52,988 nt of DNA from Romboutsia sp. 13368. Its GTDB lineage: Bacteria > Bacillota > Clostridia > Peptostreptococcales > Peptostreptococcaceae. The stretch spans positions 2,511,392 to 2,564,379 of the forward strand of contig NZ_CP048741.1 of assembly GCF_018336475.1 (NCBI RefSeq), read 5' to 3'. The translations under genes were made by a program, and so were the position numbers. The notes beneath the pieces are model-generated. The model did not search any database and was not told the origin of the DNA. It saw nothing but the letters and a program-made list of their open reading frames with translations. This document shows positions 2,507-36,667 of the stretch, one piece after another (within the stretch, counting starts at the first letter, position 1; every line of letters starts with the position of its first letter).

Positions 2507-2513
2507 GCCATAT

Positions 2514-2550
2514 AAAAGGGGTATATCTGAAGTAATGATACCCCCTTTTT
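2514..2550 (+). terminator. Intrinsic terminator after the EF-G paralog
   Basis: AAAAGGGGTAT...ATACCCCCTTTTT. Confidence 0.75.
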
Positions 2551-2656
2551 AGATTAAAAGCATAAACTAGATAAAAGTTTAATATTATATTAAGTATAAA
2601 GTATATCACCTATAAATTTAATATTATACATTCTATAAGAAAAAAACATTATAGTG

Positions 2657-2716
2657 TAAACTTTATTAAATAATAACCATATAAATTATATTAATATATA
2701 GTCAAAGGAAGTAAAG
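2657..2716 (+). promoter_or_regulatory. Decayed sigma-A promoter and degenerate CtsR heptad repeat
   Basis: TAAACT-N17-TATAAA (2657-2685), then AGTCAAA-GGA-AGTAAAG (2700-2716) versus the CtsR box RGTCAAA-NAN-RGTCAAA. Confidence 0.4.
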
Positions 2717-2847
2717 TTTATATGATTAAGTTGTAATGTAAATGACATAAATTATTATAAAGGCAATTAATAAAGCCTTTTATATATAAACAATATGAAA
2801 AATGATAAGTTATATAAGTACTAAAAAAGTATAAAGGTATTATAAAA

Positions 2848-2982
2848 AATAAGATATTTACAGAGAAAAGTTAAAATAATATTGTACTAATAGATGATAA
2901 GATATTATATATACCTATTCCTGAACTAAAAGATAAAGTTAGAGCTAATATTCTACAAAATATAGTGATAGGTTTACTTAGT
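2848..2982 (+). pseudogene. ctsR: Remnant of the ctsR C-terminal region
   Basis: Frame reads NKIFTEKS*NNIVLIDDKILYIPIPELKDKVRANILQNIVIGLLS, resembling the clostridial CtsR C-terminal pattern as I recall it (I-T..E..I....DD..L.....K.KVRA.IL..M...L). No start codon; lies directly upstream of clpC where ctsR normally sits. Confidence 0.6.
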
Positions 2983-3048
2983 ATTGATGAAAGTAACAAA
3001 GGTGAGCTGAAGATAAAAATAAGGATATGCTAAAAGGAGGGATAGTAT

Positions 3049-5490
3049 ATGTATTTTAGTAGATTTACACAAAAGTCTAAAAAAGCTATAGAATTAAGTT
3101 TAGAATGTGCTAAAGCATTTGGTGACAATATAGTTGATAGTGAATATTTATTGCTAGGTTTACTAAAAGAAGGGGATGGTATAGCTGCAAGAGTATTAAT
3201 AAAGCTAGGTATAACAGCTAAAGATATAGAAGAGAAAATAATAGAACTAAAAGGTAAAAAATCTACAGAGTTAAATGATGTACAATTAAGTAGTAGAAGT
3301 GAAGAGATATTAGCTATATCTGGTATATTTGCAGATAAATTTAAGTCTGAATATATAGAAACGGAACATATATTATTAGGCATTCTTCAACAAGGAGAAG
3401 GTATAGCTATTGATATATTAAATGAAGCGGATATAGATTATAAATCTATAGTTGAATTAATAATAGACATGGTTGGGTTAGAAAATATGAAGTCAAGCAA
3501 GTCTACACAATCTAATTATCCAGTCAAAACTCAAACATCTTCAAAGCTTTTAGATAAGTATGGAAAAAACTTAACTTTAGTGGCAAGTCAAAATAAAATA
3601 GACCCAGTAATAGGACGTGAAAAAGAAATAGAAAGGGCTATACAGATATTAAGTAGAAGAACGAAGAATAACCCTGTATTTATTGGAGACCCGGGTGTTG
3701 GAAAAACATCTGTTGCTGAAGGATTGGCTGTAAATATTGCGAAGAAAAATGTTCCTGAAAATCTAATCGGAAAAGTTTTATACACTTTAGATATGGGATC
3801 TATGTTAGCTGGTGCTAAATATAGAGGTGAATTTGAAGAAAGAATAAAACAGGTTGTAGATGAAGTTGTTAAAAATGGAAATATAATCTTATTTATAGAT
3901 GAACTTCATACGATAATAGGAGCAGGATCAACAGGTGAAAGTACGATAGATGCATCTAATATATTAAAACCTGTATTATCAAGAGGTGATATACAGATAA
4001 TAGGAGCGACAACAATAGATGAATATAGAAAGCATATTGAAAAAGATTCAGCACTAGAAAGAAGATTCCAACCAATTTTAATAACAGAGCCTACTAAGGA
4101 AGAAACGGTAAAAATATTAGAGGGATTAAGAGAACGATATGAAACTCATCATAATGTAAAAATAACAGATGAGGCAATAAATGCAGCGGTAGATTTATCT
4201 ATTAGATATATAACAGATAGATTCTTACCAGATAAAGCTATAGATTTAATTGATGAATCAGCATCTAGAATTAGACTTAGAGAAATAAACGTACAAAAAA
4301 GTATGTTGAAATCAAATAAAGATATATTAAGTAAAGAAATTAATGATGAATTAAATAAACATAGTAATAAAAATTATGACATAGAAAAATCTGAAACTGT
4401 AAATCAAGAAGTACAAACTATAAAGTCTACTAAAGAAAATAATTATATAGGGGTAGTGGATAAAGAGATAATATCTGAAGTTGTAGAGCTTTGGACAGGA
4501 GTACCTGTAAATAAAATAGTTGAAGAAGAAGCAGAAAGATTATTAAATTTAGAAGAAATCTTACATGATAGAGTTGTAGGTCAAGATCAAGCTGTAATAT
4601 CTATATCTAGAGCTATAAGACGATCTAGAGCAGGACTTAAAGACCCCAAAAGACCTATAGGATCATTTTTATTCTTAGGGCCAACTGGAGTTGGAAAAAC
4701 GGAGCTATGTAAGGCCTTAGCAGAAGTTCAATTTGGTGATGAAAATCAAATAATAAGATTAGATATGTCTGAGTATATGGAAAAACACGCTGTATCTAAA
4801 TTAATAGGTTCACCTCCAGGTTATGTTGGATATAATGAAGGAGGACAGTTAACAGAAAAAGTAAGAAGAAATCCGTACTCTGTAATATTATTTGATGAAA
4901 TAGAAAAAGCACATGATGATGTATTTAATATTTTACTACAAATATTAGATGATGGTAGACTTACAGACTCTAAAGGGCGTATGGTAGATTTTAAAAATAC
5001 TATACTAATAATGACATCTAATGTTGGAGCTACTAAAATTAATAGGGGTAATAAAGTATTAGGATTTGGTGCAAATAAAGATAAAGATGAAGAAATAAAA
5101 AATCAATATGATAAGATGAAAGATAGTATAATGGGAGAGTTGAAGCAGAAATTTAAGCCAGAGTTTTTAAATAGAATAGACGATATAATAGTATTCCATC
5201 CATTAGAGGAATGTCATATATTTGAAATAGTAAAATTAATGACAAGAGACGTTATAGAAAGATTAAAGTCAATGAATATAAACCTAGAGATGAGTGAAGA
5301 GGCAGTAAAACTAATTGCTCAGGAAGGATTAGATTTAGAGTATGGAGCAAGACCTTTAAAAAGAGCAATTCAAAAAGAATTGGAAGATACTTTATCTGAA
5401 GCAATTCTAAAAGGTGTTGTAAAAAAAGGAAGTAACGTTGTTGCTGAAATTGAAGATAATAATATAGTATATAAATGTAAGGTATTATAA
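3049..5490 (+). CDS. clpC: ATP-dependent Clp protease ATP-binding subunit ClpC, 813 aa
   Basis: Two AAA+ modules (GDPGVGKT / FIDE and GPTGVGKT / LFDE), N-terminal Clp repeats, C-terminal GARPLKRAI; SD AGGAGG. Confidence 0.95.
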   Translation: MYFSRFTQKSKKAIELSLECAKAFGDNIVDSEYLLLGLLKEGDGIAARVLIKLGITAKDIEEKIIELKGKKSTELNDVQLSSRSEEILAISGIFADKFKSEYIETEHILLGILQQGEGIAIDILNEADIDYKSIVELIIDMVGLENMKSSKSTQSNYPVKTQTSSKLLDKYGKNLTLVASQNKIDPVIGREKEIERAIQILSRRTKNNPVFIGDPGVGKTSVAEGLAVNIAKKNVPENLIGKVLYTLDMGSMLAGAKYRGEFEERIKQVVDEVVKNGNIILFIDELHTIIGAGSTGESTIDASNILKPVLSRGDIQIIGATTIDEYRKHIEKDSALERRFQPILITEPTKEETVKILEGLRERYETHHNVKITDEAINAAVDLSIRYITDRFLPDKAIDLIDESASRIRLREINVQKSMLKSNKDILSKEINDELNKHSNKNYDIEKSETVNQEVQTIKSTKENNYIGVVDKEIISEVVELWTGVPVNKIVEEEAERLLNLEEILHDRVVGQDQAVISISRAIRRSRAGLKDPKRPIGSFLFLGPTGVGKTELCKALAEVQFGDENQIIRLDMSEYMEKHAVSKLIGSPPGYVGYNEGGQLTEKVRRNPYSVILFDEIEKAHDDVFNILLQILDDGRLTDSKGRMVDFKNTILIMTSNVGATKINRGNKVLGFGANKDKDEEIKNQYDKMKDSIMGELKQKFKPEFLNRIDDIIVFHPLEECHIFEIVKLMTRDVIERLKSMNINLEMSEEAVKLIAQEGLDLEYGARPLKRAIQKELEDTLSEAILKGVVKKGSNVVAEIEDNNIVYKCKVL

Positions 5491-10485: not shown

Positions 10486-10574
10486 TATTAAATAATATAA
10501 TATTAGTAAATATAAGATAACGCAAATATAGTAATAATACAATAGAATGTGTATATACTATGCATAAGATAGAA

Positions 10575-10807
10575 AAGCGATAATTAAGAAATAGTAAAAG
10601 ATGAAATCTTTACAGAGAGGAAACAAGGGTGGAAGTTTCTAAGAGGAAGTCTTTGAACCAATCTTTTAGCTTAAAAACGGTAAAAAGTTTTTACGGGAGG
10701 GACCGTTATATCCCCTTAAAGAGAGCCTTTTTAGGCTAATTAGAGTGGTACCGCGGAAATTCAACCTTTCGTCTCTATACATAAGTATGGAGTCGAAAGG
10801 TTTTTTT
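10575..10807 (+). promoter_or_regulatory. T-box riboswitch (proline specifier) with terminator
   Basis: AGTA motif (10593), AG box ACAGAGAGG, GGTGGAA, specifier GAA-CCA-A (CCA at 10658-10660), T-box AATTAGAGTGGTACCGCGG (10738-10756), terminator AACCTTTCG...CGAAAGGTTTTTTT; upstream of proS. Confidence 0.93.
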
Positions 10808-19675: not shown

Positions 19676-20869
19676 ATGGCTAAAGCTAAATTTGAAAGAA
19701 ATAAGCCGCACGTTAATATAGGAACAATAGGACACGTTGACCACGGTAAAACTACATTAACAGCTGCAATAACAAAAACATTACACGAGAGATATCAATT
19801 AGGAGAAGCTGTAGACTTCGCTAACATAGATAAAGCTCCAGAAGAAAGAGAAAGAGGTATAACAATATCTACTGCTCACGTTGAGTACGAAACTCCAAAC
19901 AGACACTACGCTCACGTTGACTGCCCAGGACATGCTGACTACGTTAAGAACATGATAACAGGTGCTGCTCAAATGGACGGTGCTATATTAGTTTGTTCAG
20001 CAACAGATGGACCAATGCCTCAAACAAGAGAGCATATATTATTATCAAGACAAGTTGGTGTACCATACATAGTAGTATTCTTAAACAAATGTGATATGGT
20101 AGATGACGAAGAATTATTAGAGTTAGTTGAAATGGAAGTAAGAGACTTATTAAATGAGTACGAATTCCCAGGAGATGACACTCCAATAATAAGAGGATCT
20201 GCTTTAATGGCATTAGAAAACCCAGCTTCTGAGTGGGGAGACAAAATAGTTGAATTATTCGAGCAAATAGATGCTTATATACCAGAACCAGAAAGAGATG
20301 TTGATAAGAACTTCTTAATGCCAGTAGAAGACGTATTCTCTATAACAGGTAGAGGAACAGTTGCTACAGGTAGAGTTGAAAGAGGAGTATTAAAGGTTCA
20401 AGACGAAGTTGAAATAGTAGGTTTAGCTGATGAGCCAAGAAAAGTTGTAGTAACAGGAGTAGAAATGTTCAGAAAGTTATTAGACCAAGCACAAGCTGGA
20501 GATAACATAGGAGCATTAATAAGAGGGGTACAAAGAAATGAAATAGAAAGAGGACAAGTTATGGCTAAGCCAGGAACAGTTAAGCCTCACACTAAATTCA
20601 TGGCAGAAGTATACGTTCTTAAAAAAGAAGAAGGTGGAAGACACACTCCATTCTTCGATGGATACAGACCACAATTCTACTTCAGAACAACAGACGTTAC
20701 AGGAGCTTGTAAGTTACCAGAAGGTATAGAAATGGTTATGCCTGGAGATAACGTAACAATGTCAGTTGAGTTAATAAACTCAATAGCAATAGAAGAAGGA
20801 TTAAGATTCGCAATAAGAGAAGGTGGAAGAACAGTAGCATCAGGAGTTGTTGCTTCTATAGTTGAATAA
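19676..20869 (+). CDS. tuf: Elongation factor Tu, copy 1
   Basis: [26 protein letters not shown]. Confidence 0.99.
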
Positions 20870-23318: not shown

Positions 23319-23344
23319 AACAATTGTTGATATAAAAAAGAATA

Positions 23345-23455
23345 GATTTGCCGTAGACAGTAGGTGCTGAAAAGCTTAATTTCCTACCGAGGTTTTAGAT
23401 AAATTGAAATTACTAAAGCTTTTGTTGTCTGTTTTGTCACCAAAAGCTTTTTTAA
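23345..23455 (+). promoter_or_regulatory. L10 leader with attenuator hairpin
   Basis: CCGTAGACAGTAGGTGC...TAATTTCCTACCGAGG core, then AAAGCTTTTG...CAAAAGCTTT-TTT. Confidence 0.85.
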
Positions 23456-23507
23456 ATGAGATTGCGGCGAATACTAAACCTATTAGGTGAAGGAGGTGCA
23501 CATCTAT

Positions 23508-35473: not shown

Positions 35474-36667
35474 ATGGCTAAAGCTAAATTTGAAAGAAAT
35501 AAACCACACGTTAATATAGGAACAATAGGACACGTTGACCACGGTAAAACTACATTAACAGCTGCTATAACAAAAACTTTACATGAAAGATACCAATTAG
35601 GAGAAGCTGTAGACTTTGCTAACATAGATAAAGCTCCAGAAGAAAGAGAAAGAGGTATCACAATATCAACTGCTCACGTTGAGTACGAAACTCCAAACAG
35701 ACACTACGCTCACGTTGACTGCCCAGGACATGCTGACTACGTTAAGAACATGATAACAGGTGCTGCTCAAATGGACGGTGCTATATTAGTTTGTTCAGCA
35801 ACAGATGGACCAATGCCTCAAACAAGAGAGCATATATTATTATCAAGACAAGTTGGTGTACCATACATAGTAGTATTCTTAAACAAGTGTGACATGGTAG
35901 ACGATGAAGAATTATTAGAGTTAGTTGAAATGGAAATAAGAGACTTATTAAATGAGTACGAATTCCCAGGAGATGACACTCCAATAATAAGAGGATCTGC
36001 TTTAATGGCATTAGAAAACCCAGCTTCTGAGTGGGGAGACAAAATAGTTGAATTATTCGAGCAAATAGATGCTTATATACCAGAACCAGAAAGAGATGTT
36101 GATAAGAACTTCTTAATGCCAGTAGAAGACGTATTCTCTATAACAGGTAGAGGAACAGTTGCTACAGGTAGAGTTGAAAGAGGAGTATTAAAGGTTCAAG
36201 ACGAAGTTGAAATAGTAGGTTTAGCTGATGAGCCAAGAAAAGTTGTAGTAACAGGAGTAGAAATGTTCAGAAAGTTATTAGACCAAGCACAAGCTGGAGA
36301 TAACATAGGAGCATTAATAAGAGGGGTACAAAGAAATGAAATAGAAAGAGGACAAGTTATGGCTAAGCCAGGAACAGTTAAGCCTCATACTAAGTTCATG
36401 GCAGAAGTATACGTTCTTAAAAAAGAAGAAGGTGGAAGACACACTCCATTCTTCGATGGATACAGACCACAATTCTACTTCAGAACAACAGACGTTACAG
36501 GAGCTTGTAAGTTACCAGAAGGTATAGAAATGGTTATGCCTGGAGATAACGTAACAATGTCAGTTGAGTTAATAAACTCAATAGCAATAGAAGAAGGATT
36601 AAGATTCGCAATAAGAGAAGGTGGAAGAACAGTAGCATCAGGAGTTGTTGCTTCTATAGTTGAATAA
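35474..36667 (+). CDS. tuf: Elongation factor Tu, copy 2
   Basis: Identical to copy 1 except one V/I change (MEVRD versus MEIRD). Confidence 0.99.

Follow-up and report, generated by a model that had tools for sequence, protein, structure and literature searches.

In Bacillota, the Clp genes of protein quality control are under a master repressor, CtsR. In streptococci and lactococci its gene is found with clpC alone, without mcsA and mcsB, and natural loss-of-function alleles of ctsR are known in other Bacillota. Pressure-tolerant strains of Listeria monocytogenes include spontaneous ctsR mutants in which codons of the glycine loop have been deleted. In Bacillus subtilis and Clostridioides difficile the arrangement is the four-gene operon ctsR-mcsA-mcsB-clpC, and the relatives of the organism described here share with it the genes, the synteny and the operator of tandem heptads. 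McsB and ClpC of C. difficile are encoded in one operon with CtsR (PMC6387971). The second described system that bears on this locus is that of McsB and the phospho-arginine degron (Fuhrmann 2009 and Trentini 2016, as cited in PMC12583610).

The DNA analysed here, referred to as the window, is a 52,988-nt AT-rich segment of the chromosome of Romboutsia sp. 13368 and covers 53 kb of a genome of ~2.58 Mb. The Romboutsia-type clade has the two-gene arrangement ctsR-clpC, as streptococci and lactococci do, and this mcsAB-less arrangement arose independently in Peptostreptococcaceae, in which the remaining members have the full set of four. The window differs from the Bacillota operon in that its ctsR is dead and its operator decayed. 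It resembles the Listeria mutants in that loss of the repressor is viable and derepression of clp genes is expected; the Listeria lesions, however, are small, in-frame and found in selected isolates, whereas the pseudogene of the window contains dozens of changes and occurs in wild gut and soil populations. With respect to the phospho-arginine system, T7, E32 and E106, which belong to the two phospho-arginine pockets, are retained in ClpC of the Romboutsia-type clade, but the locus lacks mcsA and mcsB clade-wide. No literature linking Romboutsia to CtsR or McsB was found. We read positions 2507-3048 as a ctsR pseudogene and not as an ordinary intergenic spacer, left by a lineage-specific death of ctsR that followed an older loss of mcsA-mcsB, and we put the probability of this reading at about 0.88.

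The remains of ctsR upstream of clpC

The locus begins with a 5S rRNA gene (204-320; an ordinary Rfam match) directly upstream of the gene for a 644-aa EF-G paralog (572-2506, + strand), which is identified by Pfam and NCBIfam EF-G hits. The place of this gene ahead of the ctsR operon is conserved across Peptostreptococcaceae, and the gene also adjoins the locus in the relatives' sequences L086, L089, L090, L092 and L098. An intact clpC for a protein of 813 aa follows (3049-5490, + strand; Pfam Clp_N, AAA, AAA_lid_9, AAA_2 and ClpB_D2-small). Beyond clpC the gene order is radA, disA, a PIN/TRAM gene, ispD, ispF and a T-box-controlled proS, and then rpoBC and the ribosomal-protein clusters. The T-box leader (10571-10779), upstream of a 571-aa prolyl-tRNA synthetase-like gene, and the L10 leader upstream of rplJ (23333-23462) are likewise ordinary Rfam matches. 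The window also contains two copies of tuf, encoding EF-Tu, at 19676-20869 and 35474-36667, one ahead of the secE-nusG-rplK cluster and the other behind fusA; each has 397 codons, and the two are 98.6% identical in DNA (17 differences).

Between the EF-G paralog, which ends at 2506, and clpC, which starts at 3049, lie 542 bp, and the program-made list of open reading frames has none on the + strand in this gap. An earlier note on this DNA had put the gap at about 540 bp and had seen in it the residue of a lost ctsR. Alignments to sister Romboutsia (L090, L091 and L086) show that 2507-3048 is collinear over its whole length with their EF-G paralog/ctsR/clpC region. The remains thus occupy the position of ctsR, directly upstream of clpC and downstream of the gene's own operator, in collinearity with the intact loci of eight relatives. 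All features of the gap described below lie on the + strand.

The damage starts ahead of the reading frame. The Shine-Dalgarno sequence of ctsR, GTGGTGA in relatives, is weakened to GTTGTAA (2730-2736) according to the alignment and the comparison of upstream regions. The first three codons, ATG GCA TCA in relatives, align with ATG ACA TAA (2742-2750), so the start is kept, codon 2 is altered and codon 3 is a stop. This stop overlaps a deletion junction with a 7-nt microhomology, ATAAATT (2747-2753), which was recognised by alignment to the ctsR of L090 and from near-identical metagenome contigs. Relative to L090, about 200 bp are missing at the junction, corresponding to ctsR nt ~12-205 and to residues ~5-69. 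The deletion covers the entire winged-helix DNA-binding domain, the Pfam HTH region of which spans residues 3-71 in the sister protein, as well as the GGGGY loop. A weak hairpin, AAAGGC...GCCTTT, can be read from the sequence at the junction (2760-2781).

Downstream of the junction, two segments of very different quality follow. The first (2754-2889) corresponds to gene nt ~211-360, the first half of the dimerisation domain, and is heavily decayed: local alignment to L090 ctsR gives ~70% identity and reveals several small indels as well as a TAA in frame at 2872-2874, yet the two sequences are collinear with a z of 10 against shuffles. The second (2890-2997) holds the last 35-36 codons of ctsR, IDDKILYIPIPELKDKVRANILQNIVIGLLSIDES, and is well preserved, being 93% identical in nucleotides to the nearest relative and free of indels; it was delimited by tblastn, by positions 45-71 of Pfam CtsR_C and by segment statistics. 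The ctsR stop is mutated as well (ACT TAA to AAC AAA), so that the frame stays open until it meets TAA at 3031-3033, and the ribosome-binding site of clpC, AAGGAGGGA (3034-3042), follows at once. In L090 and L091, the counterpart to which this last stretch (2998-3048) aligns is the spacer between ctsR and clpC.

The start-less frame with a single internal stop (TAA, 2872-2874) to which the earlier note had drawn attention is present, as is its encoded peptide, IDDKILYIPIPELKDKVRANILQNIVIGLL, and its suggested likeness to the CtsR C-terminus is well founded. In a tblastn search of the whole window, R. timonensis CtsR matches 2833-2994 with 36 of 56 identities (E=1e-14), and the homology of the fragment to CtsR is certain because of this match to a sister protein. 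The similarity search could have come back empty, which would have spoken against a fossil, but it returned this significant match. More distant CtsR queries, from L094 and L092, still match 2881-2991 at E=1e-6 and 2e-4, respectively. When the peptide is searched alone, its only family hit is to Pfam CtsR_C, over positions 45-71 of 72, and this lies below threshold (E=8e-4; 20 bits against a cut-off of 23.8). CtsR residues 1-70, the PF05848 domain, show no similarity anywhere in the window by Pfam or tblastn.

The reading frame is not intact: codon 3 and the in-frame triplet at 2872-2874 are stops, indels shift the frame, and the Shine-Dalgarno sequence has been weakened. A small protein translated from the preserved 3' block was considered and rejected, as the sequence behind the stop at 2872-2874 offers no start codon (ATG, GTG or TTG) that is in frame and preceded by a ribosome-binding site. 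We class the locus as a dead gene of the CtsR family (PF05848 and PF17727).

Transcription signals and uneven decay

Immediately behind the EF-G paralog, an intrinsic terminator with the stem GGGGTAT...ATACCCC followed by a T-run (2514-2550) can be read from the sequence and is conserved in sister loci; the terminator scan passed it over because of its loop of more than 8 nt. The candidate for the former promoter of the ctsR operon, TAAACT-N17-TATAAA, lies at 2657-2685 (TAAACT 2657-2662, TATAAA 2680-2685), where the earlier note had described it, and was placed by alignments and upstream comparison. It had been called a fossil. That description does not hold, since both hexamers are unchanged relative to L090 and L091, the nearest ctsR-intact relatives. 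This identity suggests a working promoter: the element is probably the native ctsR promoter, still functional and now feeding clpC. The scan of this AT-rich DNA found promoter-like sites at chance level (seven against 7.1 expected).

The CtsR operator has fared differently. The heptad pair AGTCAAA-GGA-AGTAAAG, also reported previously, is found at 2700-2716, and alignment places it at the orthologous position of the sisters' perfect operator, AGTCAAA-GTA-AGTCAAA. Taken by itself, the pair is a 3-mismatch match of a kind that occurs at chance frequency (15 in the window against 12.6 expected). The upstream comparison is more informative: both heptads are perfect in 8/8 relatives with intact ctsR and are mutated only in the window, where three changes are derived, namely T to G in the spacer and C to A and A to G in the second heptad. 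Other Romboutsia-type metagenome populations have C at 2713 and A at 2716. The consensus RGTCAAA-NAN-RGTCAAA does not match the window's site; every relative has a perfect site at the orthologous position. Since the three substitutions fall at positions that are invariant in the relatives, they provide independent evidence that nothing binds the operator now; the operator would no longer be bound, as is expected once there is no repressor to bind it. The earlier proposal of a ctsR fossil with a decayed operator is thus borne out by both the collinearity with intact ctsR loci and the perfect operator of eight relatives. In L096 (1-140), the region upstream of ctsR differs: a promoter of consensus sequence, TTGACA-N17-TATAAT, precedes three GTCAAA heptads in tandem; the layout of promoter and operator therefore varies within the Romboutsia-type clade.

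Under the preferred reading, clpC would be transcribed without CtsR repression and would be constitutive instead of heat-induced. Transcripts would begin at the former ctsR promoter, which is unchanged, and run across ~350 nt of the wreck, and the junction hairpin at 2760-2781 would be the only obstacle to read-through that is visible in the sequence. Metatranscriptomes of related species yielded no sequence that matched the window at 96% identity. An extra start for clpC may be provided by a promoter-like element inside the wreck, TTTACA-N17-TATTGT (2857-2885).

This element adjoins the boundary between the two segments of the pseudogene, which have decayed very unevenly. Lineage-specific changes, counted at sites where L090 and L091 agree, amount to 31/129 (24%) in 2762-2890 versus 4/107 (3.7%) in 2891-2997, and the pairwise mismatch to L090 is 30/101 in the middle versus 8/107 in the 3' block (Fisher p=5e-5). 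A simple neutral-decay model does not predict such unevenness. It may reflect either a burst of change associated with indels in the middle or a constraint that now acts on the 3' block. The idea that recombination has recently brought in the 3' block is not supported, as the block's identity to L090 (93%) equals and does not exceed that of the flanking clpC (94%).

The most durable alternative takes up the second possibility and proposes that the preserved ~107 nt at the ctsR 3' end (2890-2997) are kept for the expression of clpC, with TTTACA-N17-TATTGT as promoter and the block as clpC 5' leader. The contrast between 3.7% and 24% lineage-specific change in adjoining sequence, with its Fisher p of 5e-5, argues for this, as does the position of the element, which ends right at the boundary between the middle and the 3' block. 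The nearest relative, L090, has ATCACA-N19-TATTAT at this place, so that the window's -35 hexamer is nearer to consensus and its spacer measures 17 nt. Promoter-like sites are, however, found here at chance frequency, and RNA folding of the putative leader gave no significant structure (z=-1.3, with +0.3 for a second fold). In addition, the divergence of the 3' block (8/107) does not differ from that of third codon positions in the flanking genes (p=0.23), so that the block need not be constrained, while the middle is far more diverged than those positions (p<1e-6). The anomaly may sit in the middle, where the mismatches could be inflated by decay rich in indels. On balance, retention of the 3' block for clpC expression is unlikely.

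Order of losses and ClpC in the Romboutsia-type clade

In R. timonensis (L086-L089), the locus consists of the EF-G paralog, ctsR (156-158 aa; Pfam CtsR and CtsR_C), clpC (813 aa), radA and disA, with nothing between ctsR and clpC. The nearest relatives L090 and L091, the ctsR of which is intact, 156 aa long and matched by Pfam CtsR and CtsR_C, and the further lineage L096, also with intact ctsR, have the same order. The CtsR of one of the two nearest relatives falls into a 90% cluster together with a protein labelled Romboutsia sp., which marks the organism as a Romboutsia-type member of the Peptostreptococcaceae. A synteny comparison across sister genomes thus places an intact ctsR directly before clpC in L086-L091 and L096. 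Complete sets of ctsR, mcsA (with a UVR motif), mcsB (ATP-guanido phosphotransferase and McsB_C) and clpC (816-825 aa) are found in the Terrisporobacter-like L092/L093, in L098/L099 and in L094/L095 (strain AGR-M142), and in L092 and L098 the four genes fill the same slot from the EF-G paralog to radA. The pair mcsA-mcsB is accordingly present in L092, L093, L094, L095, L098 and L099 and absent from L086-L091 and L096.

Retention of the operon in distant Peptostreptococcaceae and in C. difficile points to the four-gene operon as ancestral for the family, and the family-level ancestor would have carried the EF-G paralog, ctsR, mcsA, mcsB, clpC, radA and disA. Judged by the distribution of genes among these loci, mcsA-mcsB were lost at the base of the Romboutsia-type clade and ctsR only in the lineage of the window. 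The absence of mcsA-mcsB from all Romboutsia-type loci with intact ctsR marks that loss as an older and separate event. The earlier note had proposed that ctsR, mcsA and mcsB were lost from this locus. All three are indeed missing when the window is compared with the family ancestor; what has to be amended is that two separate losses are involved, mcsA-mcsB being already absent in L086-L091 and L096. Its suggestion that the last 60 nt before clpC could be the tail of mcsB has to be given up, because they align to the ctsR-clpC spacer of L090 and L091 and an McsB query gave no match there. By tblastn with queries from two family members, no similarity to McsA or McsB was found anywhere in the 53-kb window.

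The history that we propose for the locus has three steps. A Romboutsia-type ancestor would first have lost mcsA-mcsB, which placed ctsR directly before clpC. In the lineage of the window, ctsR would then have been inactivated, with codon 3 turned into a stop, the Shine-Dalgarno sequence weakened, indels and substitutions introduced into the middle and the gene's own stop codon changed. The whole DNA-binding domain would finally have been removed, in this strain, by another deletion of ~191-200 bp between 7-nt repeats.

The ClpC protein of the window has two Clp_N repeats, two AAA+ modules, a short M-domain that is atypical, a D2-small domain and radA/disA synteny, and its N-domain matches ClpC N-domains in the PDB. 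It is 86% identical to that of R. timonensis and 96% and 94% identical to those of the two nearest ctsR-intact relatives; in comparison with L090, amino-acid identity is 95.8% and third-position identity 87.7%. Several features are shared across the mcsAB-less clade. Beside the two phospho-arginine pockets, just before the S/T-E-H motifs, G30 is replaced by D and G104 by E (about window 3136-3138 and 3358-3360), and only in the window is H33 replaced by Y. The tip of the M-domain (window 4366-4395, ClpC residues ~440-449) is remodelled: in place of the canonical Q-D-F-E-K-A-A, the window has Y-D-I-E-K-S-E and R. timonensis N-L-D-L-D-I-S. Throughout the mcsAB-less clade the equivalent of F436 is I or L and the second M-domain helix is 9 residues shorter; a Pfam UVR hit, seen in ClpC of mcsAB-bearing relatives, is absent from ClpC of this clade. 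In S. aureus ClpC, F436 at the M-domain tip is needed for the repressed resting state. The phospho-arginine pockets also stabilise or take part in the resting state of ClpC (PMC12583610). These substitutions would fit an older change in the control of ClpC across the mcsAB-less clade.

A second alternative accepts that the copy of ctsR at this locus is dead and supposes that a functional ctsR, possibly with mcsB, persists elsewhere, so that regulation is unchanged. The window is only part of the chromosome, and ClpC still has its phospho-arginine pocket residues T7, E32 and E106, the retention of which could instead be due to the role of the pockets in the resting state (PMC12583610). In a collection of 5.8 billion proteins, in which the genes of the near-identical assemblies CP048740.1 and CP048742.1 are indexed, no CtsR homologue on a ~2.58-Mb contig such as that of this genome was found among the best 120 matches, which extend down to 48% identity. 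A search down to 34% identity returned no McsB with the name Romboutsia or on such a contig, although the sensitivity of this search was not complete, as C. difficile McsB could not be recognised among the listed hits. Apart from the syntenic ctsR of relatives, then, neither a CtsR homologue of at least 48% identity among the best 120 matches nor an McsB match carried the name Romboutsia or lay on a ~2.58-Mb contig. The three derived changes in the operator upstream of clpC, at sites invariant in eight relatives, also indicate relaxed constraint. A second functional ctsR is therefore improbable. It is likely that CtsR has been lost from the whole genome, and probable, with somewhat less assurance, that McsB has been lost in the Romboutsia-type clade.

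Wild populations and significance of the loss

The pseudogene was also found in Logan contigs of four metagenome runs (X1-X4) of one study. These contain a population of low depth (3-8x) that matches the window at ~99% identity in two pieces, 2509-2753 and 2747-3058, and given this identity over both pieces, the contigs share the operator changes, the stop at codon 3 and the scrambled middle. Between the two pieces, which overlap by the 7 nt ATAAATT, the wild contigs have 191 extra letters. The last 30 of these are a decayed version of the glycine-loop region of ctsR, and it is only through this 30-nt loose end that the extra bases of the longer allele are known. Since the wild contigs share the damage and yet keep ~191 more bases, the pseudogene is older than the ~191-bp deletion, which looks like slippage between the 7-nt repeats. 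In the dominant populations of the same samples (depth 20-57), the corresponding segment has 348 letters, which is the length of an intact ctsR, versus 136 in the window. Relatives with intact ctsR thus co-occur with the pseudogene population at roughly 10-fold higher depth.

These contigs also bear on the weakest alternative, that the wreck is an artefact of assembly or a laboratory mutation of one isolate: clpC and rpoC are split in CP048740.1 and CP048742.1, which suggests indel errors, and the ~191-bp deletion itself is seen only in isolate-type sequence, but this reading is highly improbable, given that short-read contigs of four runs, ~99% identical to the window, have the same stop, operator changes and scrambled middle, that the unmasked parts of CP048742.1 (N-masked over window 2607-2890) are identical to the window, and that the damage consists of dozens of substitutions and not of homopolymer indels. 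Because 99%-identical metagenome contigs carry the dead gene, the pseudogene is real in wild populations and is no assembly error. In CP048742.1 (L085 7468-9895) and CP048740.1 (L083 5674-9162), clpC is represented by pieces of 456 and 344 aa and rpoC by pieces of 806 and 323 aa, both genes being intact in the window; the splits are probably indel errors of those assemblies. The window's EF-Tu, S7 and RadA are identical to proteins of these two chromosomes, and a search for an exact copy of its ClpC gave no match.

A broader scenario can be sketched from these comparisons, according to which the Romboutsia-type clade dismantled the CtsR/McsAB control of ClpC in stages. Loss of McsAB would have been accompanied by remodelling of the M-domain tip and by G30D and G104E, and loss of CtsR in this species would have followed, leaving a ClpC-ClpP system with neither the phospho-arginine degron nor a heat-sensing repressor, while the preserved ctsR 3' end would have been co-opted as clpC promoter or leader. 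As a whole, this scenario is possible and no more than tentative.

The event itself is an ordinary and recent loss of a regulator, a case of routine gene decay that is of modest significance and involves no new mechanism. For annotation, 2507-3048 should be labelled as a ctsR pseudogene instead of being left as an empty spacer. For the biology of the group, a natural lineage without CtsR, inside a clade that is already without McsB, offers a comparison that bears on how much regulation a gut commensal needs, and the ctsR-intact sisters, which are 94-96% identical in ClpC and are found in the same samples, can thus serve as natural controls.
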